Virus record (IMG/VR): IMGVR_UViG_3300032050_000111
Span: 1,627-65,626 of that record
From: a virus
Taxonomy: Duplodnaviria; Caudoviricetes
Strand: one strand, 5' to 3'
DNA length: 64,000 bases
The notes beneath the pieces were generated by a model that ran no database searches, had not been told where the DNA came from, and saw only the letters and a list, made by a program, of their open reading frames with translations. Position numbers and translations under genes: made by a program. Shown here piece after piece: positions 5,558 to 60,322 of this stretch; the first letter of the stretch is position 1, and every line of letters starts with the position of its first letter.

Positions 5558-5924
5558 AGTTCTTCCCCTTCAATGCTTGTTCGATAGCGCGGGCCGCGCC
5601 TTGCAACGTCGAGTGGTTGTCGCAAATCAAGTCGAAGTCAGCATCCGTCAGCCCTCGCCACTCGCGGCGGGGTGAGTGGACAAGCATCTTCGTTGCTTCT
5701 GCGAGTCGGCCCGGTCCGTTGTGCAACGACAGATAGTCAAGCGCCGCCGATGCACTGCGCCGCGTTACAAGCTCCTCCTGCTCCTGCACCACCACCGGCT
5801 CCATCAGCGCGGCGCGGAGGGCTTCAATAGCGCCGCGAGCCCTCACAGTCGCGCCAAACTGCGCGTAGTGCTCCAATGCCTCCAGCGCCTGCCGCATCAC
5901 GGCACGATCATTCATTCCGCCCAT
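5550..5924 (-). CDS. hypothetical protein (related to 4820..5557)
   Basis: RQALEAL..EALRAAL..REWRGLT. Confidence 0.7.
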   Translation of the reverse strand: MGGMNDRAVMRQALEALEHYAQFGATVRARGAIEALRAALMEPVVVQEQEELVTRRSASAALDYLSLHNGPGRLAEATKMLVHSPRREWRGLTDADFDLICDNHSTLQGAARAIEQALKGKNYE

Positions 5925-6244
5925 GTCCGACTCCTATAGGTTGCTATCCAGCGCGACTGCTCCAGTCGGCGGGACGTTACGAGCACGCCGTCCTGCACCA
6001 GCTTGTTCATCAGCCGGCCCGCAGTGCTTTTAGGCACGCCTGTGTCCTCGACAACGTCGGCCACGGTGACATCGCACCCAGCCTGCATGACGTACTCACG
6101 GACCACGGCCTCGGCATCGCCGTAAGACCGGTCGACTTTGAGAGCCTGCACTTGCAGCGGGCGGTGCGCCCGGGATGGCAACGATTCTAGCCGACGGTGC
6201 GCCTGCTGGGCCTTCGCCGGGTCAGGGATCAGAGGGTCAGTCAT
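5912..6244 (-). CDS. winged-helix DNA-binding protein
   Basis: TVADVVEDTGVPKSTAGRLMNKLVQDGVL, an IclR/MarR-like HTH. Confidence 0.7.
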   Translation of the reverse strand: MTDPLIPDPAKAQQAHRRLESLPSRAHRPLQVQALKVDRSYGDAEAVVREYVMQAGCDVTVADVVEDTGVPKSTAGRLMNKLVQDGVLVTSRRLEQSRWIATYRSRTWAE

Positions 6245-6443
6245 CGCGACCTTCCTCTTTCGTGCGCACATAGGCGGAGAGCCTCGTGATGGCGGTCTGG
6301 TAGTACTTCACCATCTGCTGGCTGTATTCTGTCTGTGATTGGTACACGAGCAGCTGACGCTGCGCGTCTTCAAGCTGGCGCTGTGCAATGGTCTGCGCCG
6401 TCGGCTTGACGAAGAGTGCTTTGATCTGGTTGGGGATCTGCAT
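6237..6443 (-). CDS. hypothetical protein
   Basis: SD AGGAG; coiled-coil ORF. Confidence 0.7.
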   Translation of the reverse strand: MQIPNQIKALFVKPTAQTIAQRQLEDAQRQLLVYQSQTEYSQQMVKYYQTAITRLSAYVRTKEEGRDD

Positions 6444-6478
6444 GAGAGGCTCCTGTTGTCAAATGGTGAACTGCGGGC

Positions 6479-6504
6479 AAAAAAAGGGGGCCGTAGCCCC
6501 CTTT
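6479..6504 (-). terminator. intrinsic terminator
   Basis: AAAGGGGCTACGGCCCCC followed by a T-run on the minus strand. Confidence 0.75.
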
Positions 6505-6517
6505 CGACTGGCTACGC

Positions 6518-6787
6518 TCAGGCAGTGCGCCAGACGCGATAGCCGATGGCTCCGTCCTTGGACGCAGCAGCGGTACGGTAGCTGCGGTCCTTGTTCTTGC
6601 GCTTGTCGGCCATGCAGCTGGACGACACCCGACGCGCGAGCTTGCGCATCTCATCGTCGCGCTGGGCGGCGGGGATGCCGTCAGCGAGCGGCACGAAGAA
6701 CGACTGCCCCGGCTGGAGGCTGTCGAACGGATAGCGCCCGCTACGGGCACGGGCGGGAACGGGGACATCGGTCTCGATGGCGAACAT
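6518..6787 (-). CDS. hypothetical protein (YPF..L..GQSFFVP family)
   Basis: SD AAGGA; motif shared with 56820..57008. Confidence 0.75.
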   Translation of the reverse strand: MFAIETDVPVPARARSGRYPFDSLQPGQSFFVPLADGIPAAQRDDEMRKLARRVSSSCMADKRKNKDRSYRTAAASKDGAIGYRVWRTA

Positions 6788-6833
6788 GGTGATTCCTTGT
6801 AGTTGATGGGGGCGTTAGCCCCCGGGTTGTATC

Positions 6834-7823
6834 TCAGGCAGGCAGCAGGGCAGTCATGGCGTTGAGCGCGCGGTTCTTGATGTCGGCCCCCTGCCCCCAC
6901 TGCGCAGCGACAAAGCGATTCTCGTCAGTGCGAGCGCGGGTCCAGTGGTCGACGTACTCAGTGACTGCGTTGACGTAACCCCATGCTGTGCCGAAGACGC
7001 CGTCGAGTTTAGCACCCTTGCCGTCGCCGTTGAACAGGTCGATGATTTTGTTGTATCCGGCAGACAGTCGGACCTTGTCATCGCTGGGGCCGTTGCCTAG
7101 CAGGACTGCAGTGGTTACGTCGGCAAGCTCTGCGCTCACGGGGACATTGGCAAGGCGCACGATCTGGTGGCGGAACGCAGCCCATGCTGCCTCGTTGAGG
7201 CCCATGAACTCCTTGACCTGTGAGGGGTCGAAAACGGAACGGTGCGTGACACGCACTGACGGCTTAGCGTCCGCCATGGCCATCGCCAGCGTGTTTTGGC
7301 ACACGGTGCGCACTGATGTGCGACGTACCTCAGTGCCCGATGAACCGTCAGCGCTGGTGGAGACCAGCAGAAAGCCCCCGATGCTGTCCTTGATAGACAG
7401 CGGGCTGGCTTCGCCGATCTTGGCAGTCGCCCAGAAGCGCTTGCCTCCGTAGATCGTGCCAGCAGCGGACAACTCCAGCCCGCCCACCTTGACGATGTCG
7501 CGGAAGAACTCCAGCACTTCAGCAGGCTGGACGACCTTGTAGCGGTCACTGACGATGCCCAGCGCTGCCTTGGTGTCACTGCGGAACAGGACGTGCTGCT
7601 CCGGCAGTTCGAGGAAAGCGGACGCGTCGCCGGTACGGTCGACGGCGTAGCGCACCTTCGAGCGCTTGATGCACCAGTTCATGCCGGCGGCGACACGCCA
7701 CGCGTCGATGTCGGTGCCGTTGTCCACGGGGTTGCCAAGGCCGTGCCAGCCTGCGCCGTCTGCGCGCAGATAGGCGTACTCGATCTGGCCGGTCACGGTG
7801 TTGGTGGTGAGTTCGTGAGACAT
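6834..7823 (-). CDS. DUF932 / TIGR03299-like phage-plasmid protein
   Basis: WHGLG..LGIVSDRYKVVQP..AGTIYGGKRFW..RTVCQNTL..GTAWGYVNAVTEYVDH. Confidence 0.9.
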   Translation of the reverse strand: MSHELTTNTVTGQIEYAYLRADGAGWHGLGNPVDNGTDIDAWRVAAGMNWCIKRSKVRYAVDRTGDASAFLELPEQHVLFRSDTKAALGIVSDRYKVVQPAEVLEFFRDIVKVGGLELSAAGTIYGGKRFWATAKIGEASPLSIKDSIGGFLLVSTSADGSSGTEVRRTSVRTVCQNTLAMAMADAKPSVRVTHRSVFDPSQVKEFMGLNEAAWAAFRHQIVRLANVPVSAELADVTTAVLLGNGPSDDKVRLSAGYNKIIDLFNGDGKGAKLDGVFGTAWGYVNAVTEYVDHWTRARTDENRFVAAQWGQGADIKNRALNAMTALLPA

Positions 7824-7877
7824 GGTGAGACTCCTAGAGTGGTGGTGAAGTGGGGGACGACGCCCCCGGTGAGAGAG

Positions 7878-7906
7878 ACTATGGCAGATAGAGAACTGTG
7901 TGTCAA
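7878..7906 (-). promoter_or_regulatory. sigma70-like promoter for DUF932 gene
   Basis: TTGACA-17 nt-CATAGT. Confidence 0.7.
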
Positions 7907-8194
7907 CTACTGCGGCTTGACACTGGCCGCCCTGTCGAGCATCTCGCGCATGGCCTGCACGGCGCTTACCTTACGGTAGGTTGAGCGCATGTTGGCCGTG
8001 AAGTGCTCTTCAGTCATGCCTGCGGTGACTGCACAGGATGCTGCGATCCGACTGAGCACGGTGAGTACTGCGGCGTACATAGACGCTGAGTCTTCAGGCG
8101 TGTCTTCGGAGAAAGGCGCGGTGATGATGTCGATGGTGCGGATGATGCCTTCATCCATCGCGCGCATCATGTCGGTGACTGCTTTGTCTTTCAT
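7907..8194 (-). CDS. hypothetical protein
   Basis: SD GAGGAG; ORF track. Confidence 0.7.
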   Translation of the reverse strand: MKDKAVTDMMRAMDEGIIRTIDIITAPFSEDTPEDSASMYAAVLTVLSRIAASCAVTAGMTEEHFTANMRSTYRKVSAVQAMREMLDRAASVKPQ

Positions 8195-8205
8195 GGTGTT
8201 GCTCC

Positions 8206-8676
8206 TCAGAACAGGGCGTCTTCAGCGCCGGGGGTGGTGGTGCGGGTGGGTTTGCTGCGGGGTTTCTCGGGGAACGGCCACAGGTTGTCGAGCGCCATGG
8301 GTCGAGGCTTCGGCTTGTCGTACTCCTGCGCGAACGCTTGGTGTTCCCTCTTGATGATGTGCTGCGCAATGGCCAGCAGCGCGTTGTCGAACAGCGCGTC
8401 TTCGGTCAACAGCACCGGGTCAGTGTAGCCGGGATCTTCCTTGTGCGCCGGGATCTGGTCATTGTACTCGGCGATGAACTTCGAGCGCTTGCTGTCCAGC
8501 CTGATGCCGTAGTCGCCCAGCACGAGCAGATCGTTGTGCTCGACGGCATAGGTCAGTTCGATGCTCTCCGGCTCGACCTTGCGGTAGTACGTCATGAAGA
8601 ACGGTGCCGTGCGGTCTAGGAACTCGCAGGCGTAGCTGAGGTGCTCAGGGGTGAACTCGTGGCGGGGCATGGTCAT
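8206..8676 (-). CDS. hypothetical protein
   Basis: SD AGGAG; ATGA overlap with the upstream gene. Confidence 0.7.
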   Translation of the reverse strand: MTMPRHEFTPEHLSYACEFLDRTAPFFMTYYRKVEPESIELTYAVEHNDLLVLGDYGIRLDSKRSKFIAEYNDQIPAHKEDPGYTDPVLLTEDALFDNALLAIAQHIIKREHQAFAQEYDKPKPRPMALDNLWPFPEKPRSKPTRTTTPGAEDALF

Positions 8677-8969
8677 TCTCCTGTGGCTTTGGCGATGGCG
8701 GCTTGGGCTTTGGCCAGCGCCGCTTGATGGTCGAGGTCGAGGTCGTCTTCGATTTGTGCGAGCGCCCACTGCAGGGCTTCGAGCAAGGCGGGCGCACTCG
8801 CGATGAGGCGGGCGTTAGCCGCCTGTCTGGGCGTCATATCTCGGTAGCTGGTGATCATGCACACGGCGGTGTCGTCGTCGCTGTAGATCACGTTGTCCAT
8901 GATGCACCACGGACCGGGAGTGTGCGTTTGTTTGAGGTTCCACGGGCCGGGCGTGTGCTTGGTCTTCAT
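8673..8969 (-). CDS. hypothetical protein (HTPGPW..ANARLIA family)
   Basis: Duplicated HTPGPW motif; ANARLIASAPALLEAL. Confidence 0.75.
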   Translation of the reverse strand: MKTKHTPGPWNLKQTHTPGPWCIMDNVIYSDDDTAVCMITSYRDMTPRQAANARLIASAPALLEALQWALAQIEDDLDLDHQAALAKAQAAIAKATGE

Positions 8970-9238
8970 GGTGTAGCGCCTGTTGCTTTGGTGAGTTTGT
9001 AAAGGTAGCTAGCTGTTTGTAGACAGTAGCCGTTGTTGTAGAAGTGGTCGGAGTCTTGGTGGATGATCTTCACGAGGCCCATCTCAACGAGTTGGTGCAG
9101 CGCCGTGCGTTCGCGACTGCCGAAAGACATCCGACCGCCGAGAGCGCCTCGGCCGCTGCCCGCCTCGACGGCGGCAGCGCCGCCGTGAGACCGCGCCCTG
9201 TCGATCAGCCTCTGCTGGGTTTTGGTGAGCGTGGTCAT
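8966..9238 (-). CDS. hypothetical protein, possible wHTH
   Basis: SD CAGGAG; ALHQLVEMGLVKI. Confidence 0.65.
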   Translation of the reverse strand: MTTLTKTQQRLIDRARSHGGAAAVEAGSGRGALGGRMSFGSRERTALHQLVEMGLVKIIHQDSDHFYNNGYCLQTASYLYKLTKATGATP

Positions 9239-9251
9239 GGTGTAGCTCCTG

Positions 9252-9482
9252 TTACTCGGCTGCAGATTCTGCGGACGAGATGGCGTCTTCGAGGTTGCTG
9301 CACGCGTCTTCGAGGTTGCTGACGGCTTGCTCCGCTGCCTCGCCACGCTCGCTGCCCTGCAGGCTCTCGGGCATGTTGTCGTAGTACTCCTGCTCTTCAT
9401 CGCGAGCGGTTTCGAGAATACTGAGCGCCTCTTGCAGCATGCCGATGGCTTTGTTGATCTCGGTGCGACGGTCTTTGTTCAT
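9252..9482 (-). CDS. hypothetical acidic helical protein
   Basis: SD AGGAG; EEQEYYDNMPESLQGSERGE motif. Confidence 0.8.
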   Translation of the reverse strand: MNKDRRTEINKAIGMLQEALSILETARDEEQEYYDNMPESLQGSERGEAAEQAVSNLEDACSNLEDAISSAESAAE

Positions 9483-9545
9483 GGTGTAGCTCCTAGTGGG
9501 GAAAGGTGCCGCCCCGAAGGGCGGCGGTTGGTCAGGGTGGTGTGG

Positions 9546-10013
9546 TCAGAGGTTGCGCACAATCGAGCGCAGGGCTTCGCGGACCTTCTCCTCGAAGGAG
9601 TCGCCGTCATCGTGCTGGTCGGACTCGTGGCGCTCCATGATGCGCTCGATCCAACTGTCGATGTCGCTCTCGTCGTTGTGCTCGCGCTCGTTGCAGTGCA
9701 TCTCGATGCCGTCCTCGACGGCCTGCTCGGCCACGCTGGCGATGTACGCCTTGAGCGTGTCGATGTCGTTGAGGATCGTCTTCTCGGCGGGCTCAGTGGG
9801 CGCAGCCGGTGCGTCGAACGCAGGCTGGGAGTTGGCCCAGTCCACGGTGCCGGTCAGCGGCGTCGCTACGCACTTCTGCTCCAGCACGGCGAGGCGCTCG
9901 GACAGCCTGATGATGTACTCCTCCTGCGCATTGATCGTGCGCTGCAGGGGCAGCGTGTACTTCTCGATGGCAGCGGTGAGGGCGGTGTTGATGATGGTGT
10001 TGAGGTCGATCAT
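9546..10013 (-). CDS. hypothetical acidic protein
   Basis: SD CAGGAG; ORF track. Confidence 0.75.
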   Translation of the reverse strand: MIDLNTIINTALTAAIEKYTLPLQRTINAQEEYIIRLSERLAVLEQKCVATPLTGTVDWANSQPAFDAPAAPTEPAEKTILNDIDTLKAYIASVAEQAVEDGIEMHCNEREHNDESDIDSWIERIMERHESDQHDDGDSFEEKVREALRSIVRNL

Positions 10014-10076
10014 GGTGAGACTCCTGTGGTGAGAAGAGGGCGCGGTGTGCGCCCGGTGGTTAACTGTGACAACGTG

Positions 10077-10472
10077 TCACAGTCTGAAGTCGCCGTCGAG
10101 GATGGTGTCCATCCTGCCTGCTTGTACGAAGAACGCTGCCATGTCTGCACGTTCATACGTAGTGTAGCCTAGCAGTGTGAGTGCTGCAAGCATGCCTTGC
10201 AAGTAGGCTTCGCCCTGTGCTGTGTAGGCTTTGCTTGTGGGCTTGAGCTTGAACTCGCGGGCGCGCATCTTCCATACCTCGGCGAGTTTGCGTTCAAGGT
10301 CTGGCAGTCGCTGCACTGCGGCAAGCTGGGTGAGTATCGCTTCGTACTGCTGCGCGTGCTCGTTGGGCGCCGTGGCTTTAAGCTGCCGCTTCACAAGCTC
10401 TTGCAGCGTGCTGATGGTCTGCTCGTCAAGCAGGCGCATGTACAGGGTGGTGTTGTCGGTCGTCATGGTCAA
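10077..10472 (-). CDS. hypothetical protein
   Basis: ORF track; stop codon lies inside a palindrome. Confidence 0.7.
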   Translation of the reverse strand: MTMTTDNTTLYMRLLDEQTISTLQELVKRQLKATAPNEHAQQYEAILTQLAAVQRLPDLERKLAEVWKMRAREFKLKPTSKAYTAQGEAYLQGMLAALTLLGYTTYERADMAAFFVQAGRMDTILDGDFRL

Positions 10473-10765
10473 GCTCCCTTCTTGGTTGCATTACGGTCAA
10501 GGAAAATCAGCCAATCTTTTTCGCTCAGGCGACGCACAAAGAGCCTGCGCCCTTTGACAACGCGTGCGTGTGCGTTGATCGCCTTGATCACAGGCGACTC
10601 CACAGCGCCGTTGCTGTTCACCCGATCTTGGGACGGGTCTACGCGTACAATAACGAACGCCTGCGCTTCGAGCAGCGCGAACATCGCGTCGTTGTCGACT
10701 ACTTGCTTCGTCGGAGGGTCGATGGGCGTCAACGTGTACGCCCACTCCGGTATGTTGTGCTTCAT
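10469..10765 (-). CDS. hypothetical protein
   Basis: SD CAGGAG. Confidence 0.7.
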   Translation of the reverse strand: MKHNIPEWAYTLTPIDPPTKQVVDNDAMFALLEAQAFVIVRVDPSQDRVNSNGAVESPVIKAINAHARVVKGRRLFVRRLSEKDWLIFLDRNATKKGA

Positions 10766-10815
10766 GGTGATAGCTCCTGTGGTGAGAGAGTGCCGCCCCG
10801 GAGGGCGGCGGTTGG

Positions 10816-11154
10816 TTAGCTGGCAAAGAGTGCGTCTGGTACTTCGACCTCGTCGCCCAGCTTGCTAGCGACGTAGCACCGCATGGCTGCGATCAGGGGG
10901 GTGTGGCCTTCGTATGCGGGGCCATCTTTGTGCGCCATCCAGCAGTCACGTTCGGGACTTTGCTGGATCGTGATCCCCTCCCGCTCGATGAGCGGCCCGC
11001 CACGAGGCCAGTCATCCGAGTAGCGCGGACTGGACAAGACACCCCTGTTCAGAAAGTCCTGATACCAACTCTTGTGCCCGGCTACAGATGCTTCGCATTG
11101 GTCTACCGCCCAGTCGAGCGTGGGGCCAATGAGGTCGGTCGTCTTGATCTTCAT
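10816..11154 (-). CDS. DUF2591 / NinX-like protein
   Basis: LDWAV..YSDDW..GGPLIERE.I..G.TPLIAAMRCYVASKLGDEVEVP. Confidence 0.85.
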   Translation of the reverse strand: MKIKTTDLIGPTLDWAVDQCEASVAGHKSWYQDFLNRGVLSSPRYSDDWPRGGPLIEREGITIQQSPERDCWMAHKDGPAYEGHTPLIAAMRCYVASKLGDEVEVPDALFAS

Positions 11155-11204
11155 GATGTAACTCCTGTGGTGAGAGAGTGCCGCCCGTGTGGGCGGCGGG
11201 GTGG

Positions 11205-11471
11205 TTAACGGGTAGCGAGCTTCGCACGAATGCGAGAGACGATCTCGGGGAGTTGGCATTCGTAGGCTTGGAAGACGATGCCTCCGCCGAATTGTTTGTT
11301 GTGATATCTGCGGCCGCCGAGCGCGTTGGCGGCTTTCACAACGCGTGCGTACCTATCGCTGAGCGTTAGCGTGTAGTCTGGCGCGGGCTCAAGGTCGAGG
11401 AAATGGCACACGTAACGGGGGTTGCCGTTCACGTCACTGTTGATGCGGGTCCAGTCAATATTCGTGGTCAT
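11205..11471 (-). CDS. hypothetical protein
   Basis: SD CAGGAG; DVNGNPRYV..GGRRYHNKQFGGGIVFQ. Confidence 0.75.
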   Translation of the reverse strand: MTTNIDWTRINSDVNGNPRYVCHFLDLEPAPDYTLTLSDRYARVVKAANALGGRRYHNKQFGGGIVFQAYECQLPEIVSRIRAKLATR

Positions 11472-11540
11472 GCTGTAACTCCTGTGGTGGAAAGCGGGAC
11501 AACTTGTTACCGGGACAAGATGTCCCGGTAATCCCGGCAT

Positions 11541-12296
11541 TCAGTTGGCTGCGATGTTGATGACCCGGCGCTTGTGGCCCGGGGCGTGGTCGAGGATGAC
11601 GATGCTGCGCGCCGTGGGGTGAGCCCCCGAGCAAAGCCGGCAGTCAGCACACTGCGTGCGCTTGCCCGCCTCGGCAGAGGCAGGACAGCTGATCTCGATT
11701 GGTGAGCGCGTGGGCTCGGTGGCTACGCGAAACGTACGCCACCCGCGTGCGTGGGCAAGCCGCTGCTCCTCGGGACTGTCGACACTGGCCATGAACAGCT
11801 TGCGCGCGCGGGGCGATGCGTCGAGCCACTGATGCGTGTAGCCCGTGTGCCCACGAGCGTAGGTGATCAGCGCCCGCCAGATGTGCAGGGGCGCAGCCAG
11901 CGGGTCACCGTATGTGCCGAACCGTACCATCCGAGCAATGATGAGCAGCGCGACTTCGAGCGCCGACGCACGAACGTAGGACCCGCGCAAGTATGCGCGA
12001 AACACGGCTGCGACTGAGCGCCCCGTGTCGACATAGCAGGGCGGCTCACCTGTGAGCTTGGCTAGGATGGGCCTGTGCATGCACTGCCCGCAGATGCTGG
12101 CGTCGGCCCCTGTGCGTACTGCCTCGACCGGATGCATGTCGGTGCGGATGATGAATGTCTGCACCATAGCGCCGGTCTTGGCGTTGGATGATTTGCTGTG
12201 TACGCCGGTCACGATCACTGCTATGGGCGCCCCGTCAATCTCTGACGGGCCTTCGTAGATGATGTAGCCGGCGGGCTTGCGTGCTTTGTTTGCCAT
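11541..12296 (-). CDS. Cys-rich metal-binding protein (gp88-like)
   Basis: SNAKTG..CGQC..CYV..RFGTYGDP..TGYTHQW..CPAS..CADCRLC. Confidence 0.7.
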   Translation of the reverse strand: MANKARKPAGYIIYEGPSEIDGAPIAVIVTGVHSKSSNAKTGAMVQTFIIRTDMHPVEAVRTGADASICGQCMHRPILAKLTGEPPCYVDTGRSVAAVFRAYLRGSYVRASALEVALLIIARMVRFGTYGDPLAAPLHIWRALITYARGHTGYTHQWLDASPRARKLFMASVDSPEEQRLAHARGWRTFRVATEPTRSPIEISCPASAEAGKRTQCADCRLCSGAHPTARSIVILDHAPGHKRRVINIAAN

Positions 12297-12347
12297 GATG
12301 AAAGCTCCTAGTGGGAGTGGTAACTGTGACACCGTGTCACAGATAGG

Positions 12348-13061
12348 TTAGCGCCGGGTCGGTTGGCGCGGGGGCTCCTTCGCCCGGTCCAGAAGCAGCG
12401 GCGGGCGTCGGGGAAAGAAGGCGTAGAGAGAGTGGGCGGTGTAGATGCCCCTCAGGCTTGCGAGATCGCGCTCCAAGGCGTCCGTGAGGGTGGCCCGCCA
12501 CCCTCCTACCTTGGCAGGCAGTCCGGGCGTCAGGCGGGCTCTGAGCAGGGCCGCATCGCGGATGCGCCGCAACAGGACGAGGTAGGCATCGAGCCAATCG
12601 ATCAGCGCCGGGGGTACCCCCGGACGGCCGCGCGCCGCGTCGTGCCGGAACTTGGAGCGCCTCGATGACATGATCCGATCCTCGGCACGGAGGATGGCGA
12701 GTTCGTCTTTCCACGCGTCGATGCGTTGCTGCACCCGTGCTTGGCTGAGAAGCGCTCGGGTGAGATTGTGCTTGCGTGTGAGATCGTGCTCGATGAGGTG
12801 TGCGCGTCGGATGCCAGTGCGGTGAGCGCTCTCTATCAAGGGTCGGGGTTGCTGGGTCGGGCGGTACGAACCGCGTGGATGACATGCGCGGCATATCTCC
12901 TCGTAGATGTAGACAGCTTGTCGGCCTGCTGCGCGCAGCTGATCGAGCGTGTCCTGATTAAGGCGTCGCGCTAGCTCGTCTCCCCATAGCTTGCGACGAA
13001 AAGCTATGCGGTTCTTTGCCTTGAGACAAAGGGGGCAGATGCGTGTTGGATCTGTGGTCAA
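12348..13061 (-). CDS. hypothetical basic protein with two CxxC motifs
   Basis: TTG start with GGAG SD; CPLC and CRAC. Confidence 0.6.
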   Translation of the reverse strand: MTTDPTRICPLCLKAKNRIAFRRKLWGDELARRLNQDTLDQLRAAGRQAVYIYEEICRACHPRGSYRPTQQPRPLIESAHRTGIRRAHLIEHDLTRKHNLTRALLSQARVQQRIDAWKDELAILRAEDRIMSSRRSKFRHDAARGRPGVPPALIDWLDAYLVLLRRIRDAALLRARLTPGLPAKVGGWRATLTDALERDLASLRGIYTAHSLYAFFPRRPPLLLDRAKEPPRQPTRR

Positions 13062-13555
13062 AATGTGATCTCCGATTACTGTTTAACGTGAGACACGAGG
13101 TCCAAGCCATCGAAAAAGCGCAGAGGAATCAAAGCCTTAGGCTGAATTCGGGCGAGATGCTGAAAAGGTCGGACGACAAAATGTCAGGGATGAAGCCATC
13201 GAAAGAGCCCAATAAAATCAACGACTTGAGGGTCGATTGGCAGGAATCCACATGCGGCGGGGGTACACACCCCTATGGCGCCGCCGAACGACCAACTTTT
13301 CAGGGCCATTGTCAAAAAGTTTACAAGACTTTGGGAGGACGGCGGCGCCATCCTTTCTATACTACTCTAAATAGATAGGATAGAGTAGTAGTAGTGGGCA
13401 GGCAGGTTATTGAAATGCAAGCGCTTTTTCGAGGGGTTGGGGGAGGGGGCGCATGTTGTGAAAGGGGAGCAGGGATGTAAAGCCGTTTAAGACTTTACAA
13501 ACTCTTTACAAACGTTGGACAAGCCCGCACGAGGCGGGCTTGACATTTGACAAAG
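13062..13555. other. non-coding region, candidate replication origin
   Basis: AT-rich inverted repeat at 13360-13390; clustered TTTACAA/TTGACA/TTGGACAA; hairpin at 13520-13542. Confidence 0.4.
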
Positions 13556-14014
13556 TCAGTCGCAGACGATCCGCTTGACTTCGCGCTTGACAACTTCCTC
13601 CGTTGTCTCAACTACCTCAATGCGACAGTTTTTGCTGTCGCTCTTGACATAGGCGCAGACCATCATGGTGATCGCGAGCCCATCGCATTCTTTGCGGAAT
13701 GAAAAGTCGCGATTGGGCCTATCGAAGGTGTAGTCGCTGGTGTGCGTGCACGCGAAGCCTTCATCTTCGAGTGCTGCAAGAAGACGCACGAGTTTGGCGG
13801 ACTTGAACCCCGAAAGGTTGTGCATGTACACCGTCACATGCACTGACTGGGAGTGCGGACTGACGCTGACGTACGGCTGTACTTTGCGGGGCAGCACCTT
13901 GTGCAGCACCGTGCGCAGCGCCATGCTGTCCATGGACTTGGTCCACTTGAGCGCGGCTTCGACATCGTTGCGGGCGCTGGTCAGAGCACGGGTGATTTCG
14001 TCACGAAGGGACAT
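13556..14014 (-). CDS. hypothetical protein
   Basis: SD CAGGAG. Confidence 0.75.
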   Translation of the reverse strand: MSLRDEITRALTSARNDVEAALKWTKSMDSMALRTVLHKVLPRKVQPYVSVSPHSQSVHVTVYMHNLSGFKSAKLVRLLAALEDEGFACTHTSDYTFDRPNRDFSFRKECDGLAITMMVCAYVKSDSKNCRIEVVETTEEVVKREVKRIVCD

Positions 14015-14109
14015 GAGAGACTCCTGAAAGGTTGCCGGGACAAAGTGTCCCGGCAAGGTGCAGTGTCGCACCGCACAGCCCACGCAGTGCATAGGCTGTA
14101 CGTTGGACG

Positions 14110-14220
14110 CTAGAACAAAGCCATGCCCATCCAGAGCGTGGCGAACATGAGGATGAAGACCGCGAGGGCCTCCGCGTAGAGCAGTGCCGTCTTGATGCGA
14201 CGGCGGGTCTTGAAGGACAT
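14110..14220 (-). CDS. small membrane peptide (36 aa)
   Basis: SD GAGGAG; basic N-terminus plus one TM helix. Confidence 0.6.
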   Translation of the reverse strand: MSFKTRRRIKTALLYAEALAVFILMFATLWMGMALF

Positions 14221-14234
14221 CACGTGAAAGCTCC

Positions 14235-14582
14235 TCAGTAGTTGTACCAGATGCTGGTACGGATCAAGACCTTGCGCCCCTTGCGGCGCAAGACGCGGGC
14301 GCTGTGGGTAGCGCACCCGCAGCCGTCGTACTCGTGTTGACAGCGCGACCCTGACAATGTCGCGACTAGCGCACGTGTCGCTTCGTCTCGCTCTTTGCGG
14401 GACAGCCTCGGGCCGAGCGTGGCCCACATCAGGGACACGTCGCCTGTATCGTAGTCGATGCGCTCTTCGACCACACGCGCAGGCGTGAGGCGCACGTTGA
14501 AGTCGCGCCCCCATGTGTCGAGGTGTCCCCACCCTGCGCGGTAGCGGTGGGTCAGACGGGCAGCGACAGTGGTTTGGATCAT
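14235..14582 (-). CDS. hypothetical protein
   Basis: SD CAGGAG; CQHEYDGCGC motif. Confidence 0.75.
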   Translation of the reverse strand: MIQTTVAARLTHRYRAGWGHLDTWGRDFNVRLTPARVVEERIDYDTGDVSLMWATLGPRLSRKERDEATRALVATLSGSRCQHEYDGCGCATHSARVLRRKGRKVLIRTSIWYNY

Positions 14583-14622
14583 GTGAAAGCTCCTGAAAGA
14601 TTGCCGGGACATTCTGTCCCGG

Positions 14623-15135
14623 TTAGGCGAACTCGCGGGCAATGATCACCCGCGCTTGACGGATGCGCTCCGCCGTGTACTGCGCGTTTGCACGCGCCTC
14701 GGAGAGGCGCAGCGTAGCCACGACGGTTGTCAAATGGGGGAACATCACCTCCCATTTACCTTTCCCGCTCTGCCAGTACGACCAGCGCTCCTCGAACGAT
14801 GCGCGGCTATGCATGTATGAGTCCAGCGTCTCGTACCAGCGCAAGCGCTGGTCGGACGTTTCGTACCTCAGCATTTCGTGCGGCCCGCCGGCCAGCACTT
14901 TCATCGCGGCGTGGATGCCGCGATCATAGAGGAGGGCGCAGCGCTGCCCCTCTACTTCGAGGTGGCCGTCGGGTGTGAGCCCGACCCACTGGTCTGGATT
15001 GGTGGACGCGTGCTCGTCCACCCAATACACCCCGCAATCGAGGAAGTACTCCACATCGGAGTACTTCGCGACCTCGGCCTGCATGGCCGACGCCTTGGCG
15101 CGCTGCGCCGGGGTGAGTTTGAAGCGTACGTACAT
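14623..15135 (-). CDS. hypothetical protein
   Basis: SD AGGAG. Confidence 0.75.
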   Translation of the reverse strand: MYVRFKLTPAQRAKASAMQAEVAKYSDVEYFLDCGVYWVDEHASTNPDQWVGLTPDGHLEVEGQRCALLYDRGIHAAMKVLAGGPHEMLRYETSDQRLRWYETLDSYMHSRASFEERWSYWQSGKGKWEVMFPHLTTVVATLRLSEARANAQYTAERIRQARVIIAREFA

Positions 15136-15172
15136 TGTGAAAGCTCCTAGTGGTGGTAACTGTGACAGAGTG

Positions 15173-15250
15173 TCACAGCAGCAGCATGGCAGCGGACGCG
15201 AGCCCGCTGATGATGAGCGCCGCGATGGCGGCGAAGTCGTCTTGGTTCAT
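15173..15250 (-). CDS. possible small membrane peptide (25 aa)
   Basis: MNQDDFAAIAALIISGLASAAMLLL; stop lies inside a palindrome; weak SD. Confidence 0.4.
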   Translation of the reverse strand: MNQDDFAAIAALIISGLASAAMLLL

Positions 15251-15365
15251 GGGGGTTTTGAAGCCTTGAAGTGTGGCGGAACAGGGCGACCCCACAGCGT
15301 AGAGTCACGCTGCCCTCGGAAGAAATTGCCGGGACACGATGTCCCGGCAACCGCTGTGTCCAATA

Positions 15366-15839
15366 TCAAGCCGCACGCGCCTCGGCGATAGCCGTGGCGA
15401 GAAGCCGCGAGGCTTCTTCGTACTCACCACAAGCCTTGACCAGCTTAGCGGCAATCTTCGCGATGTGATCGGGCACCTCGATGGGTTCCTTTTCTTCCTT
15501 TTTCTTCTGAGACTGCCCGATCAGGGCTTTGATCCAGCGCTCGTGGGCCTTTTTAGCGGCCGCGCCGGCCTTGTCTTCCGGCCAGCAGAGCGCGCCGGCC
15601 GTCGCGCCACGGGTGCCGACCGTGAGGACCACGCCTTTGGCGGCGGCAAAGCCTCTCAGCGTCTTTGCCTTGACATCGGCAAAGGCGGCACCGCGCAACT
15701 CGCGGCGAGCCGCGAGCAGGCGCATGGCCTGCTCGGAACCATCGTTCACCATCACGGTGAACGACACGGCATCGTCCCATTTCATGGTCGCGACGGCCGC
15801 GACGGAAGCGTGGGCGAGAGTGGTAGTGAATTGCGTCAT
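15366..15839 (-). CDS. hypothetical protein, first gene of leftward early arm
   Basis: SD AGGTG; Ala/Lys-rich. Confidence 0.7.
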   Translation of the reverse strand: MTQFTTTLAHASVAAVATMKWDDAVSFTVMVNDGSEQAMRLLAARRELRGAAFADVKAKTLRGFAAAKGVVLTVGTRGATAGALCWPEDKAGAAAKKAHERWIKALIGQSQKKKEEKEPIEVPDHIAKIAAKLVKACGEYEEASRLLATAIAEARAA

Positions 15840-15916
15840 GAGAGCACCTATGCAAGGTTGTCGGGACATGTTGTCCCGGTTAGTGGGCATCGACAGCCCC
15901 TGCTGCCGACATCTAA

Positions 15917-15925
15917 AGCTTAGCA
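15917..15925 (-). promoter_or_regulatory. possible extended -10 early promoter
   Basis: TGcTAAGCT upstream of the first early gene. Confidence 0.35.
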
Positions 15926-16048
15926 TGACCTCGTTTTGCCCCTAGATTCGCCCCCAAAACCCAGCCCTGCCAACCCCACCCACCGGGGAGGCCCCGTGTG
16001 CAGCGATGACGTGGCGGCGTGGCGCAGACAGTGTTTCACAACCACGCT

Positions 16049-16174
16049 CCCCTATTTTGTAAAATTTGCCCTGTTGTTTTGTCCAAAGTCAAGCCGCAGC
16101 CACACGCAGCCGCACGTGCACACACCCCACCCCCTATTTTGTAAAATTTGCCCTGTTGTTTTGTCCAATGTCAA
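16049..16174 (+). repeat. 38-bp perfect direct repeat (44 bp with one mismatch)
   Basis: CCCCTATTTTGTAAAATTTGCCCTGTTGTTTTGTCCAA at 16049-16086 and 16131-16168. Confidence 0.95.
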
Positions 16175-16192
16175 ATTCTCACACGCAAGCAT

Positions 16193-16219
16193 AAAAAAAG
16201 CCCCCGGCGTGCGGGGGCT
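16193..16219 (-). terminator. intrinsic terminator
   Basis: AGCCCCCG-CACGC-CGGGGGC followed by T7. Confidence 0.85.
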
Positions 16220-16268
16220 AAGCTTCAGGAGAGAGGAGACAGGCCATGCGCATTGCGCAGCGGCCCAG
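16193..16268 (-). ncRNA. candidate antisense small RNA (~75 nt)
   Basis: Bounded by a promoter (16273-16301) and a terminator; no ORF; contains CUCCUCUCUCCU. Confidence 0.5.
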
Positions 16269-17004
16269 TCCGAGTGTACATTACCGTGCAACAGCAAGCA
16301 AACGCCTTTGGCGCACACCTATGTTTGAAGAACTCATGCGGTTTGAGCCGGAGCCGGCGCATATCCACGACGCTCTGCCGGTAACCGACGCGTCCGCGAA
16401 AGACCTTCTGGGCGCTCAAATCACGACTGCGCAGTGGTTAGACGAGTTAGGAGTGCCGTCCGACGTAGAAATAGACATCAAACGGCAAACCAAGGCAGCA
16501 TGCGAAGCGTTTGCGGTACTCACAGGGCTCGATGCAGTACCGGAGCCCACAAAAAAGCAAAAAGAAGCGAAAGAAGAGAAGAAAAAGGAAGCGCTATTAG
16601 CCGTTCGTACGCCTATGGCGGTGCAGCAGCTTACGGCAATGCTTGGAGACTACGAATGGGAGTTCGTAAATCAAGCTAAAGAGCTAAGAAGCTACACTGT
16701 TGCCAAGATTCTTGAGGAAACAACACACCCTGACGCCAGAATTCGACTGCGCGCCCTGCAAATGCTCGGAAATGTGACCGAAGTTGGGCTGTTCACAGAG
16801 CGAATTGAGGTAACTAAGAAGGACGCCACTGAAGCTGAAATTGAAGCACGCCTGCGCGAGCGTCTTAGCAGGTACGCAATCGACATCACACCCACCACGG
16901 CGCCAACAAAAGAGGCTGTACTCGCGTATACGCCTGCTCAAGCCGAAGAAACTGTCGATATTGACGCAGAAATAGGCACAGTTGCGGAGCGTAAAGTTGA
17001 TTGA
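16246..17004 (+). CDS. terS: putative terminase small subunit (alternative start 16321)
   Basis: Directly upstream of terL; ARIRLRALQMLG..VGLFTERIEV motif; strong AGGAG before 16246. Confidence 0.7.
   Translation: MRIAQRPSPSVHYRATASKRLWRTPMFEELMRFEPEPAHIHDALPVTDASAKDLLGAQITTAQWLDELGVPSDVEIDIKRQTKAACEAFAVLTGLDAVPEPTKKQKEAKEEKKKEALLAVRTPMAVQQLTAMLGDYEWEFVNQAKELRSYTVAKILEETTHPDARIRLRALQMLGNVTEVGLFTERIEVTKKDATEAEIEARLRERLSRYAIDITPTTAPTKEAVLAYTPAQAEETVDIDAEIGTVAERKVD
16273..16301 (-). promoter_or_regulatory. sigma70-like promoter
   Basis: TTGCTT-17 nt-TACACT. Confidence 0.55.
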
Positions 17005-43000: not shown

Positions 43001-44916
43001 CCGACGCAGAGGTTGCTCAGACCGGCGGTAGGGGCGATGTCCTCGATGACCTGTCCGAAGCCGACATCACCGACGCAGAGGTTGCTCAGACCGGCGGTAG
43101 GGGCGATGTCCTCGATGACCTGTCCGAAGCTGACATCACCGACGCAGAGGTTGCGAATACGCTAGGTAGAGACATTGCCGATGATTTGTCCGATGACGCT
43201 GTTAAAGCCGCCATTGATCAAATGGAAGGCGGTATGTCATATGACGACTATGTCCGGCTTGTTGACGAGATCACAGGTACCGGCGCAGGCACGGGGGGCG
43301 TAGACCTGTCCGAAGCTGACATCACCGACGCAGAGCTTACGGACACGCTCGGTAAAGACGTTGTCGATGATCTGTCCGAAGCTGACATCACCGACGCAGA
43401 GCTTACGGACACGCTAGGTAAAGATGTTGTCGATGACCTGTCCGAAGCGGACATTACCGACGCAGAGCTTACGGACACGCTAGGTAAAGATGTTGTCGAT
43501 GACCTGTCCGAAGCGGACATTACCGACGCAGAGGTTGCTCAGACCGGCGCTGAAAGCGATTTGGGCGATACCCGTGATGACATTGCCGACAGCGGCGGCA
43601 CCAGCGGTGATGTACTTGACCGCGATTTGGGCGATGCTTTTGATAAAGACGTTGAAGATGTATCCGATGACGCTGTTAAAGCCGCCATTGATCAAATGGA
43701 AGGCGGTACGTCGTATGACGACTATGTGCGGCTTGTGGACGAAATCACAGGCACTGGCGCAAGCACAGGCGCGAGCACAGGTACCAGCACTGGTACTGGC
43801 GGCGGCTTAGGCGCTTTGGCCGACACGGTCAAAAACATCGTAACGAACAACCCGACAGCCACCGCGCTAGGCATTGCAGCGCTTACAGGCGCGGTCAGCG
43901 GCGGCACGCAGCAAACGACCGGGACTAGCGGAGGCACTACGCAAAACATCCCGCGTTACACTTCTCCGCGCGTGTTCGGCAATGTTCAAGGGGGTGCGGG
44001 CCAAGGCAGTGTAAGTGGTGGCGTCGGGGGTGGCGGAGGTGGCGGCTACGCGGACGACAGCGGCAAAACGCAGTCGCAAATTGCGTACGAATACCTAATG
44101 GGTATGCGTCCGTCTTCTCGCGCGTACCGTGGCGCGCCTGTTCAGCAAGCCCCTGCTAGACCGGCGGCTGTTCAGCAAGCTCCTGCGCAACAAGTTTCTG
44201 CGCAGCAAGCTTCTGCGCAGCAAGCTCCTGCGCGCTCGTATAGTACGCAGGAGATCATGAACGCCTACAAGGACTTTGTAGGCAATCAGGGCATGACCGA
44301 AGAAACCTTCGTATCTGAAGCGCGTCGTTTGGGCATCACCGATGAAGAGCTTATGGCTGCGCGTGGGCAGCTACTGCAAGAAATGCAAGCTCCTGCGCAG
44401 CAAACCCCAGCGCGCTCGTATAGCACGCAAGAGATCATGAACGCCTACAAGGACTTTGTAGGCAATCAGGGCATGACCGAAGAAACCTTCGTGTCTGAAG
44501 CGCGTCGTTTGGGCATCACCGATGAAGAGCTTATGGCTGCGCGAGAACAACTGCTCCGCGAAATGCAGGCGGCGCCCATGGCGGCAGGAGGCATTGCAGC
44601 ACTTGCTGCCGGCGGACGTATGGCTGAGGGGCATCTAGGGAGCTACTCCGACGGAGGGCGTCTGCTGCGTGGGCCCGGGGACGGCGTTTCCGACTCCATT
44701 CCTGCTAGCATCGGCGGTAAGCACCCGGCGCGTCTGGCTGACGGTGAGTTTGTCATCCCCGCGCGTATCGTTTCGGAGCTTGGTAACGGGTCCACAGAAG
44801 CAGGCGCCCGCCAGCTTTACGCAATGATGGATCGTATTCAGAAGCGTCGAGGCAAGACTGTAGGCAAAAATGCCGTAGCAGTTGACTCCAAGGCACGTAA
44901 GTTCCTCCCCGCTTGA
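40078..44916 (+). CDS. giant internal virion/ejection protein with internal repeats
   Basis: GRHGDSTLVHM..NPETGLPEA N-terminus; GPGDGVSDSIPA..LADGEFV C-terminus. Confidence 0.8.
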   Translation: MSLANLAQEIAHKGRHGDSTLVHMTPGEVAGLAAIARAHGGELTVNPETGLPEANFLKKILPALAGAAVSSVTGWNPFASSLLIGSATGLASGSLSKGLAAGLGAYSGASLAGGLTDLGAQALANQAASVPYAANLPPGEVFSASAAPSAFDKIGAGFGRLTEKGGPQAFVDAMGGSKGLMQAGLAGLAGASMMEPQKTVPTVTKQPSLIRPMVMQRQQRPWQEAQQMGGQYFDDRLTPLTPYEAAGGGVVPPPSGEAVHLYADGGSVAGSATPAAAPFSSQQIADYYKQFVTQGGMSEADFVSGARNFGVTDAQLMSARNLLLGVPENTSWAAANQMVAPPPQQPMGGYGADAGAINLAGMPGANAGPPAAGVGSINLAGMPGADAGPPASFAPAAAQQPLGGPPSPAGGTAPNSISTPPPPQQPLGGPPSPAGGTAPNIISTPPPPQQPTRSRPTTTRLPGLGLTPEQLATQYQMYVASGRKTEDEFMSNFNIDPMALADLKQTMVNQSPAQAIAAAQPTVNEAVAPVSVAAAPAQRTFTPQEIAGYYEDFVVKQGMSDADFIKSARDFGVTDDQLLQARDVFLASKQPPAQPAASVAAPASRAGEALNMRNLSAMQPDDALGYLRQITPQQLQIEQSAPVYESEYGGRTFYSAPGGVPSIGNQLTPIYSGGAGEGESPTLTGFERQITPTFDPSYEGGRYGGYHAVYDTSGKLKDVVFRPEERSGGWLAENIETIAPAVIGALAGPGAAALLGGGTATAGSSALAGALMGGTYGAGSAAVNDQNVLKGAVTGALTGAASGALPYLFDGATAAPIDAELGFSNYNGTGAIGSTGIVSDLDELAQILPEGGVSAGTTPSFTTDQIVDAYEEFVGRGGMSEADFIQEAYKYGVTDEQLLNARQQLLQDMGLDTTSTAATGQGAVSAGDISDDILSSAIDQLEGGMSYDDYVRLVDEITGTGTGTGGVDLSEADITDAEVAQTGGRGDVLDDLSEADITDAEVAQTGGRGDVLDDLSEADITDAEVANTLGRDIADDLSDDAVKAAIDQMEGGMSYDDYVRLVDEITGTGAGTGGVDLSEADITDAELTDTLGKDVVDDLSEADITDAELTDTLGKDVVDDLSEADITDAELTDTLGKDVVDDLSEADITDAEVAQTGAESDLGDTRDDIADSGGTSGDVLDRDLGDAFDKDVEDVSDDAVKAAIDQMEGGTSYDDYVRLVDEITGTGASTGASTGTSTGTGGGLGALADTVKNIVTNNPTATALGIAALTGAVSGGTQQTTGTSGGTTQNIPRYTSPRVFGNVQGGAGQGSVSGGVGGGGGGGYADDSGKTQSQIAYEYLMGMRPSSRAYRGAPVQQAPARPAAVQQAPAQQVSAQQASAQQAPARSYSTQEIMNAYKDFVGNQGMTEETFVSEARRLGITDEELMAARGQLLQEMQAPAQQTPARSYSTQEIMNAYKDFVGNQGMTEETFVSEARRLGITDEELMAAREQLLREMQAAPMAAGGIAALAAGGRMAEGHLGSYSDGGRLLRGPGDGVSDSIPASIGGKHPARLADGEFVIPARIVSELGNGSTEAGARQLYAMMDRIQKRRGKTVGKNAVAVDSKARKFLPA
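42862..43760 (+). repeat. coding tandem repeats (60-bp DLSEADITDAE units; 3x IDQ.EGG.SYDDYVRLVDEITGTG)
   Basis: Directly visible near-identical repeats. Confidence 0.92.
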
Positions 44917-60031: not shown

Positions 60032-60322
60032 TCAGCCTTTTTGCTGAAACTCTCGCAGACTGAATTCTGTGCATATTGCTCTCCAAGCGTCCTGTTGCGT
60101 TTTAGCAGCCTGCATGCAGCGCACGAGCCGCTCCACGGCTGCTTTGTTTCGGGGGGTTACGTCGTTGCCGTTCATCCAGTTGTACACCGTCTGACGCGTA
60201 GCGTGCGTGGCTTCGCAGAGCAGCGTGACCGGGATGTCGTGGTAGATGGCCCAGCGCCCGAGACGCACGCCCAAGCTCAAAGGCAGCGACTGTACCTTGT
60301 CGATGAAGTTCTGTCTGTACAT
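60032..60322 (-). CDS. Cro/XRE-like HTH protein
   Basis: VTLLCEATHATRQTVYNWMNG. Confidence 0.75.
   Translation of the reverse strand: MYRQNFIDKVQSLPLSLGVRLGRWAIYHDIPVTLLCEATHATRQTVYNWMNGNDVTPRNKAAVERLVRCMQAAKTQQDAWRAICTEFSLREFQQKG

Follow-up and report, generated by a model that had tools for sequence, protein, structure and literature searches.

What is the role of a short palindrome that recurs between one gene and the next in the early region of a phage? The question is raised by the IMG/VR virus record IMGVR_UViG_3300032050_000111 (65,626 bp, rated complete), of which we analysed bases 1627-65626, a stretch of 64,000 nucleotides referred to here as the window. An earlier note on this DNA had described eight GACA-N3-TGTC palindromes in its first early genes, and had offered three explanations for them: sites for a dimeric protein, hairpin signals comparable to the hairpin promoters of phage N4, or recombination sites at cassette boundaries. 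The observation is real and general, reaching beyond one phage. We put at roughly one in two the probability that the palindromes are intercistronic modules of the early messenger RNA (mRNA), each made of a hairpin and a ribosome-binding site (RBS), which serve also as recombination joints.

The layout of the phage sets the scene for these elements. Leftward genes occupy the minus strand from about 15926 down to 1, and a plus-strand block reaching 56836 holds terS (16246), terL (16982), the portal gene (18544), and the head, tail and ejection-protein genes; minus-strand genes for a primase-helicase and an SNF2 helicase begin at 56971. No nucleotide relative was found among 50,697 deposited phages with near and distant DNA search modes, and in protein searches TerL shows at most 44% identity to HTVC023P-type pelagiphages, phage DSL-LC04, and the cyanophages Pag-Yong1, MinM2 and Pra-JY27. 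The phage is a podophage-like relative of Pag-Yong1 and the HTVC023P type.

The core GACANNNTGTC is found 13 times in the window, against 0.95 expected, a number reached in none of 100 shuffles. Whereas five of these matches (at 757, 12912, 13175, 17048 and 50789) are bare, the other eight have extended arms, with plus-strand starts at 10068, 11514, 12328, 14039, 14608, 15164, 15333 and 15865. Five of the eight form subfamily A, (TTG)CCGGGACA-N3-TGTCCCGG(CAA), in which the copy at 15865 has a terminal T.G, and three form subfamily B, CTGTGACA-N3-TGTCACAG. They are the following, named in the order in which the leftward genes are read:

15862..15878, minus strand: H1, subfamily A, CGGGACA-N3-TGTCCCG, 7 bp; leader copy, with the ATG of the first early gene (15839) about 20 nt downstream.
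15326..15350, minus strand: H2, subfamily A, TTGCCGGGACA-N3-TGTCCCGGCAA, 11 bp; 15 nt past the stop of gene E1; fold z-score -3.36.
15160..15178, minus strand: H3, subfamily B, CTGTGACA-N3-TGTCACAG, 8 bp; followed by TTACCACCACT-AGGAG-CTTTCAC-ATG of E3.
14604..14622, minus strand: H4, subfamily A, 8 bp; adjoins the TAA of E3 and is followed by CAATCTTTC-AGGAG-CTTTCAC-ATG of E4.
14032..14056, minus strand: H5, subfamily A, 11 bp; precedes E6; fold z-score -4.10.
12324..12342, minus strand: H6, subfamily B, 8 bp; 5 nt past the TAA of E7, ahead of E8.
11507..11531, minus strand: H7, a variant of subfamily A, TTACCGGGACA-N3-TGTCCCGGTAA, 11 bp, with a compensated change of G-C to A-T.
10063..10083, minus strand: H8, subfamily B, ACTGTGACA-N3-TGTCACAGT, 9 bp; the TGA of E12 lies in its 5' arm.

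All stems are perfect over 7-11 bp, and the eight loops, read on the plus strand, are all distinct (ACG, AGA, CCG, AAG, TTC, GAG, CGA, TGT). The earlier note's counts, with its two subfamilies of five and three, its single terminal mismatch, its stem lengths and its distinct spacers, are all borne out. Across the whole record there are exactly five GGGACA-N3-TGTCCC and three TGTGACA-N3-TGTCACA sites, with no match to the reversed-pattern controls, and none of the eight joins a half of subfamily A to a half of subfamily B. When junction windows of 68-88 nt were folded as RNA, the hairpin was part of the minimum-energy structure in all eight (z-scores of -0.58 to -4.10), with runs of 7-11, at most 13, consecutive pairs.

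The setting of the hairpins is as regular as their sequence. H1 stands in the leader of the first gene, and the other seven stand between a stop codon and a Shine-Dalgarno sequence, in line with the note, which had placed most of them just ahead of an RBS and some on or against a stop codon; a TGA lies within the 5' arm of H3 and of H8, and a TAA abuts H4. The gene call upstream of H3 is uncertain, since the hairpin either encloses the TGA of a 25-codon open reading frame (ORF) or lies within the 3' end of a 53-codon ORF. Downstream, subfamily A is followed by the spacer CAAyCTTTC-AGGAG and subfamily B by TTACCAC...CACT-AGGAG, so the repeated unit is the hairpin plus its spacer plus the Shine-Dalgarno sequence, of about 45 nt. 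The sequence AGGAGCTTTCA(C/T) precedes four genes and CACCACAGGAG precedes others. Around H7 (11495-11545, minus strand) there are partial extra copies of the arms, CCGGGAT upstream and TTGTCCCG downstream, resembling a scar left by the nesting or duplication of a hairpin.

Junction hairpins are a property of the longer gaps in the operon: between 15366 and 7823, all ten gaps of 40-95 nt hold a hairpin, against none of the four gaps of 14 nt or less. Five of the ten hold an A or B hairpin and one a B hairpin together with a G+C hairpin (H8, followed by the second hairpin and the Shine-Dalgarno sequence of E13); one has a weak G5/C5 stem only, and the other three have a second family, which occupies equivalent gaps beyond the point where the GACA type ends:

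11180..11197, 10792-10809 and 9508-9525, minus strand: second-family junction hairpin, GCCGCCC-N4-GGGCGGC, with the spacer ACTCTCTCACCAC-AGGAG.

The confinement to 6 kb that had been claimed for the palindromes thus holds for the GACA type, in a scan of the whole record, but not for junction hairpins as such, which continue below 10 kb in the GCCGCCC-N4-GGGCGGC form. The even spread over the genome that would have spoken against a special role is not seen, as all eight copies are in the early operon and, in relatives, repeated hairpins are about 11 times denser in the early arm.

According to our preferred reading, the leftward early operon would be transcribed, probably by the host polymerase, from the divergent region by terS, and each palindrome would fold into a short stem of 7-11 bp under a 3-nt loop; with the following 6-25 nt and the Shine-Dalgarno sequence, this hairpin would make up the junction module between two cistrons. 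In the polycistronic early mRNA this hairpin would act as structural punctuation: it may shield the upstream cistron from 3' exonucleases or mark a processing point, and it may free the next RBS from long-range pairing. At the DNA level, the repeated cores would be crossover points at which whole ORFs are exchanged between phages, and the same crossover route could homogenise the copies within a genome. That the hairpin acts as RNA is a choice of parsimony, because the hairpins sit inside an operon and would fold once transcribed.

The relatives were collected by their TerL, blind to the motif, in IMG/VR searches that returned 14 and then 80 loci; in all, at least 594 TerL relatives were confirmed among 599 candidate stretches. 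The closest among the loci fetched (L010-L012, TerL 84%) have the same layout, with CGGGAC-N4-GTCCCG in the leader and at the junctions. Four contigs which had shown multiple copies in a pattern scan (L039, L056, L064 and L075) are also TerL relatives, at about 50% identity, and their version, AAGCGGGACA-N3-TGTCCCGCTT, lies in the arm that diverges from terS. The 89 sources taken together have 283 repeated hairpin families on the upstream side of terL (0.79/kb) against 44 on the downstream side (0.073/kb), the roughly 11-fold difference given above. Sixty loci extend 1.8 kb or more upstream; two or more hairpins with a GAC apex are present in 31 of them, and a repeated family of some kind in 48. 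Near-duplicate loci (L010/011/012, L222/226, L205/212/214/217, L056/075) inflate some of these counts.

A GAC or GACA apex is present in 131 of the 283 repeated early-arm hairpins, in 32 loci, and the lower stems differ by lineage (TGCAGACA, TGTTGACA, TTTGCGACA, TTTGGGACA, CAGGGACA, AAAGAGGACA, TCCCGACA, AAAGTGTGAC); other lineages use GGTTAGA, GGTGGAG or TGTGTCA. A quick TerL tree shows the GAC type dispersed, with 18 changes against a shuffled mean of 19.6. De-duplication by context leaves 121 unique GAC-apex copies in the 32 loci, with a loop of 3 nt (83 copies), 4 nt (21) or 5 nt (17). The junction setting recurs in this set: a Shine-Dalgarno sequence and a start codon follow within 45 nt on the early strand in 63 copies, compared to three in the mirrored control, and 75 copies have the stop codon of an ORF of 50 or more codons within the preceding 30 nt, compared to 33 on the other strand.

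The genes around the modules are rarely the same. When 25 early-arm proteins were compared with the relatives by tblastn, shared genes were few, and none of them was beside B-type hairpins. Hairpin modules are thus common to many relatives while the genes between them are replaced. The architecture is also that of the cultured cyanophage Pag-Yong1 (TerL 39%), in which (C)GGTTCA-N3-TGAACC(G) occurs 11 times; ten of these copies occupy the leader or an annotated junction of early genes. The cyanophage records MinM2 and Pra-JY27 are nearly the same as Pag-Yong1. HTVC023P, whose gene layout upstream of terL is different, was left out of the comparison.

The sequence just past the hairpins bears on the idea that they are weak terminators or pause sites, which would produce a falling gradient of expression or call for a phage antiterminator. 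Many bacteria have the same stem, with A/T tracts, as an ordinary intrinsic terminator, H2 is followed by TTTCTTCC, and the stem-loops of the T4-type phages discussed below terminate transcription according to excerpts of the work describing them (PMC2839356). However, there is no general U-tract, T being found in 22-39 of the 121 GAC-apex copies at each of the first eight downstream positions; the subfamily B copies are followed by TTACCACC, and a terminator scan listed none of the eight hairpins. We regard this role as improbable.

Whether the palindromes are folded strands or double-stranded operators is a question for the pairing between their arms. We aligned 83 copies with a 3-nt spacer, giving 82 distinct rows, in which the pairs at positions 7 to 10 from the loop, which are not forced by the selection, form in 73/82, 61/81, 60/82 and 47/82 rows, respectively. 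These unforced pairs comprise several pair types, and only 28-41% of cells pair in a control with slid partners. Since a co-evolving dimer could also yield covariation across genomes, the check was made within genomes too: in 8 of 54 copies, Watson-Crick pairing extends at least three pairs past the consensus of the locus, against about 1.1 expected, the added pairs being of unrelated sequence. In addition, GAC and GTC are four nucleotides apart in some relatives (N4) and five in others (N5), L153 having both. The extension past the consensus and the loop, which varies from 3 to 5 nt and is free in sequence, favour a folded hairpin over a dimer operator.

The operator view deserves its own account. 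It takes the palindromes as double-stranded sites for a dimeric phage regulator, which would act as a shut-off or roadblock at each junction, in analogy to the stoperators of Cluster A mycobacteriophages, from which the sites here would differ by being symmetric. Helix-turn-helix candidates are encoded at 5912-6271, where the product is a winged-helix protein (IclR/MarR-like, E 5e-7), and at 60032-60322. The layout of 8+3+8 sets the centres of the half-sites about 11 bp apart, stem and loop are symmetric between strands with G.U pairs not favoured, and the lineage-specific sequences, like the concerted change in L195 and L197 described below, fit a protein that co-evolves with its sites. A protein would not, however, demand the 3-5 extra complementary but unrelated bases seen in some copies (the 8 of 54 above), nor does it fit the alternation of N4 and N5 spacing. 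The lack of A/B hybrids among the eight sites, which by our own arithmetic would have a chance of about 0.006 if the halves were independent, and the unrelated G+C hairpin at other junctions also argue against it. Overall, we find this quite unlikely, and of the three options in the earlier note the hairpin signals fit best, on the grounds of the extra complementarity, the differences in arm spacing and the missing hybrids, even though the strand symmetry speaks for the dimer and the likeness to N4 that the note had drawn does not stand.

The recombination part of our reading is based on pairs of close relatives. Between L010 and L012, 1006 of 1010 positions agree through the 5' arm of the third hairpin, past which 39 of 62 positions match from the loop to the next ATG; 15 nt are shared at the start of the ORF, and 160 of the next 300 positions match (about 53%), which we read as no real similarity. 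The L012 hairpin is a chimera of an AGTC-type 5' arm with the loop and 3' arm of the AGCC-type copy located 300 nt further on, and the crossover falls inside the 7-nt core that the two share at the apex. In L220 and L223, both flanking modules are kept and the ORFs between them differ, the breakpoints being the stop codon ahead of one hairpin and the ATG past the other. Homology breakpoints at hairpin modules are thus shown in two close pairs, in support of the recombination sites that the earlier note had proposed for cassette boundaries.

These exchanges could be thought to need a dedicated recombination system, specific to the hairpins, that captures and exchanges early cassettes as happens at the attC sites of integrons. 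The L012 crossover within the 7-nt apex core and the replacement of whole ORFs between conserved modules are what such a system would leave behind. Nevertheless, the proteins that were scanned yielded no integrase or HUH enzyme, nine of the 13 homology boundaries lie away from hairpins, and the two clear cases are explained by ordinary recombination or template switching at short repeats, which makes a dedicated system highly improbable.

A different kind of change separates L195 and L197, two collinear relatives with near-identical TerL. Four orthologous hairpins (2106, 2894, 3564 and 4009 in L195; 6212, 7003, 7786 and 8252 in L197), whose flanks are 83-93% identical, have undergone an identical change from GGGACA-GCG-TGTCCC to GGAACA-CG-TGTTCC, that is, G to A, C to T, and the loss of one loop base, whereas a fifth copy in a 99.3%-identical block is unchanged. 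All copies within L195 have a single loop sequence, and likewise those within L197. Such a concerted change needs either gene conversion among the copies or a reader with changed specificity.

The second option leads to the reading in which a sequence-specific factor recognises the GAC(A)/(U)GUC apex of the folded strand, either a phage or host endoribonuclease that makes single-gene mRNAs, following the logic of CRISPR repeats and Cas6 or of the T7 RNase III sites, or an RNA-binding regulator of early translation. The apex is the most conserved part of the element, present in those 131 of 283 early-arm hairpins, in 32 loci dispersed across the TerL tree, whose lower stems are lineage-specific; the four hairpins of L195 and L197 changed alike, as expected if all copies fit one reader; and the layout is like that of the T7 early operon, with a copy in the leader, copies at most junctions and a terminator-like G+C hairpin at the end. 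Against this, the early genes include no nuclease or RNA-binding family according to Pfam and PHROGs, classical RNase III needs longer stems than 7-11 bp, and copying or gene conversion would account just as well for the uniform loops of L195 and of L197. GGGACA and GTGACA apexes are, moreover, interleaved in one operon in which an unrelated G+C hairpin takes the equivalent gaps, which argues for structure over sequence. We consider such a reader doubtful. A bolder proposal, and a decidedly doubtful one, is that a factor conserved in the clade reads the folded GAC(A) apex either as a junction-cutting endoribonuclease or as a hairpin-specific recombinase acting on an integron-like cassette array; if that were true, the concerted change in L195/L197 and the crossover in the L012 apex core would be the marks of that reader.

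Several observations weigh against the preferred reading of the modules as mRNA hairpins and recombination joints. The covariation across genomes is largely explicable by a co-evolving dimer as well, and compensated changes within genomes are few, with seven cells, six of them from subfamily B in the window, against 22 one-sided changes. There is no RNA-specific signature either: in the sense of the mRNA, the internal non-Watson-Crick pairs are three G.U, five A.C and five others, and at pairs 7-9 G.U is not favoured (14, against 22 A.C), one orthologous pair offering a G.U intermediate (GGGG/CCCT in L223 where L220 has AGAG/CTCT). The loop is symmetric between strands, A at its first position (26) matching T at its third (28), and C at the first (27) matching G at the third (24); its middle base is C in 37 and G in 28, and a single stem in L167 carries AAA or TTT loops. 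With this symmetry and no preference for G.U, the elements behave as true DNA palindromes, and the hairpins may have a role at the DNA level. A purely structural role would also leave the recurrence of the GAC(A) apex across the quick TerL tree unexplained; the conserved apex may reflect a recognising factor, or only common descent and homogenisation. As for joints, of the 13 independent high-identity boundaries only four come within 70 nt of a family hairpin, where a rough estimate puts the rate by chance at about 11%; an excess of homology boundaries near hairpins over all pairs is suggestive only. The metatranscriptome evidence, finally, consists of three contigs of 151-154 nt, all inside E8 and none at a hairpin, with no transcript ends visible; these come from one run with 5% of the sampled words, compared over 9900-16400, and three other runs gave nothing.

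How do these modules compare with the hairpins of known phages? The early mRNA of T7 has RNase III sites (R0.3 to R1.3) which are irregular hairpins of about 20 bp or more with an internal loop. T7 is alike in its arrangement, with a leader hairpin and further hairpins at early-gene junctions, in an operon which the host transcribes (here, probably) from tandem promoters to a terminator, and differs in the hairpin itself, since the stems here are perfect, of 7-11 bp and closed by a triloop, instead of irregular and of about two turns. REP elements with their RAYT transposases, and mobile palindromes of the terminal-inverted-repeat type, are short extragenic palindromes in families that evolve in concert. 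They resemble the present elements in being short, extragenic, located between co-directional genes and concerted in their families, whereas this phage has no transposase, its palindromes lack a GTAG-type tag at the base, and the A-type palindrome is not multi-copy in the bacterial loci returned.

The hairpin promoters of N4 have stems of 5-7 bp. Their likeness to the elements here lies in the short hairpin with a 3-nt loop and in the early region of a podophage, and the corresponding reading would be that of template-strand DNA hairpins read by a virion polymerase, which would provide each early gene with a start of its own. This could find some comfort in the very large proteins (1612, 1920 and 1129 amino acids) encoded next to an ejection-protein homologue, and in wobble-compatible pairs, which are slightly commoner on the template strand (five against three). 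In N4, as described in excerpts of Lenneman and Rothman-Denes 2015 (PMC4496689), there are three hairpin promoters, with hairpins centred at -11 on the template strand, which need a G:C closing pair and a loop with a purine at -11 and G at -10, the recognised bases being -11, -10, -8 and +1. The single-subunit virion polymerase of N4 is put at about 3,500 amino acids in abstracts of other papers. None of this is found here: the closing pair is A.T in all eight copies of the window (and in all 82 rows, by virtue of the selection for GACA), the loop is free and strand-symmetric, and the largest ORF has 1920 codons' worth of product, with no polymerase detected in the large proteins by a catalytic-motif scan, PHROGs, Pfam, a PDB sequence search or Atlas, all of which are sequence-level searches. 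Eight copies in 6 kb, at nearly every junction and often overlapping stop codons, are also unlike promoters at the head of a few units. The comparison with N4 made in the earlier note consequently falls, and we give N4-type promoters very little credence.

The closest parallels come from other phage groups. The PeSLs of the T4-type phages RB49 and phi1 combine, in excerpts of Arbiol et al. 2010 (PMC2839356), a strong sigma-70-like promoter with an effective terminator stem-loop; these repeated cassettes lie between small non-essential early genes, and their copies recombine, so that genes are replaced, inserted or deleted. The position at junctions and the shuffling breakpoints in L010/L012 and L220/L223 are alike, whereas here none of the eight hairpins has a promoter-like site, a U-tract does not follow as a rule, the cassette consists of hairpin, spacer and Shine-Dalgarno sequence, and the phage belongs to a different group, that of podophage-like relatives of the Pag-Yong1/HTVC023P type. 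In Cluster K mycobacteriophages, the start-associated sequence (SAS) is a fixed 13-mer, GGGATAGGAGCCC, at translation starts according to excerpts of Pope et al. 2011 (PMC3203893), and the ESAS just upstream of it has imperfect arms of 17 bp and a spacer of 4-13 bp (PMC3203893, PMC12699233); excerpts of the Yasnaya_Polyana paper still described the function of both as unverified in 2025 (PMC12699233). As far as these excerpts go, both systems have an inverted repeat directly upstream of an RBS-bearing, start-associated sequence, in the non-structural arm only and in one orientation, with a consensus that varies between sublineages. The differences are the perfect arms of 7-11 bp and the 3-nt spacer of the present elements, the host and phage type, and the absence here of GGGATAGGAGCCC, to which AGGAGCTTTCA(C/T) at four genes is the nearest counterpart.

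The layout is therefore known in kind from other phages, the T4 PeSLs and the Cluster K ESAS/SAS, while its dimensions and sequence here differ. We found no published account of such elements in this phage group in the main texts searched, supplements aside, and no published paper on Pag-Yong1 by name; in the genomics paper on the HTVC023P type (PMC9599517), there is no mention of promoter, hairpin, palindrom, early genes or RNA polymerase. The earlier description of the system as undescribed accordingly stands for this phage group, within the literature searched, but not for the kind of element.

Some other candidates were tried and rejected. A sigma-70 promoter cassette was sought with a consensus scan of 6000-17000, which gave a single site at 7906-7878 and none at the hairpins, with a consensus that may not be the host's. 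TTGCCG...AAyCTT in the A-type modules was judged by eye not to be a promoter, as transcription would then begin within the Shine-Dalgarno sequence. A host REP-like repeat was dismissed after the exact A-type palindrome had given at least 120 single hits, with one genome per species; in the 80 bacterial loci that were read, it belongs to GRDxLSR coding stretches or to ordinary terminators, and none of them has a second copy within 1.5 kb. In these loci (L233-L312), GCCGGGACA-N3-TGTCCCGGC arises from GRD(I/M/T)LSR codons in the ABC-transporter permeases of high-G+C bacteria, and elsewhere it is a terminator stem. The GCGGGACA words, considered as iterons of the primase-helicase, had no homology support, that enzyme having only eight distant matches in the phage collection. 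An Rfam scan of the window found no family at its gathering score; up to an E value of 1 it gave three weak matches, none on the hairpins.

The divergent region and the start of the early arm have further features of their own:

16049-16092 and 16131-16174, minus strand: two 44-nt direct repeats, 98% identical and 82 nt apart, in the divergent region upstream of H1.
13520..13542, minus strand: G+C hairpin after E6, which closes the first run of junction modules; a 494-nt non-coding gap comes next.

The direct repeats are probably tandem early promoters, and are followed by a G-rich leader which is recognisable also in L010 and L225. The non-coding gap (13062-13555, 494 nt) contains TTTGTAAAG repeats and a TACTACTAC/TATCTA tract, with similar tracts in the equivalent place of L010 and L225, and may serve within the early arm as a second promoter region or as an origin. 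A minus-strand intrinsic terminator (16199-16219, an 8-bp G+C stem and a run of seven T) lies just past the complement of the RBS and start of terS, and may give rise to a cis-antisense RNA over that start; the same layout was seen by eye in L010 and L225. Together with a CU-rich stretch, the whole lying at 16192-16241 on the minus strand, it has a weak match to RF02278, a toxic small RNA of Betaproteobacteria, with 31.3 bits against a gathering score of 50 and an E value of 0.0024.

Regarding the genes, the first early gene E1 (15366-15839, minus strand, 157 amino acids) is conserved in position and weakly so in sequence (36% in L010, 24% in L225); only five homologues were found in a collection of 5.8 billion proteins, and its AlphaFold model is helical and of low confidence (pLDDT 65.2). 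The Zn-ribbon protein E7 (12348-13061), with its two CxxC pairs, shows weak conservation in L010. The largest ORFs of the phage encode 1920, 1612, 1129 and 1005 amino acids, the first three being the very large proteins that adjoin the ejection-protein homologue. The 1920-residue protein of the ejection block (47624-53386, plus strand) has an FtsK-gamma winged-helix domain at residues 506-561 (Pfam E 2e-13; PDB FtsK gamma E 1.5e-7). The 1612-residue ORF has the same 8-bp hairpin (GCCTACAA-N5-TTGTAGGC) at 44263-44283 and 44443-44463, 180 nt apart, which points to an internal repeat of that gene.

The element marks the early arm of a large and mostly uncultivated phage group, that of the at least 594 TerL relatives in IMG/VR, and reaches the cultured cyanophage Pag-Yong1 in a different sequence form. 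Junction hairpins provide a simple rule for locating early operons and gene boundaries in such genomes, whose fixed linkers frame the exchange of accessory early genes as entire ORFs. They also sharpen a question common to the PeSLs and the ESAS/SAS, namely the role of intercistronic hairpins before phage early genes, and Pag-Yong1, with its ten junction copies, together with the natural 'mutants' L195/L197 and L220/L223, makes that role testable.

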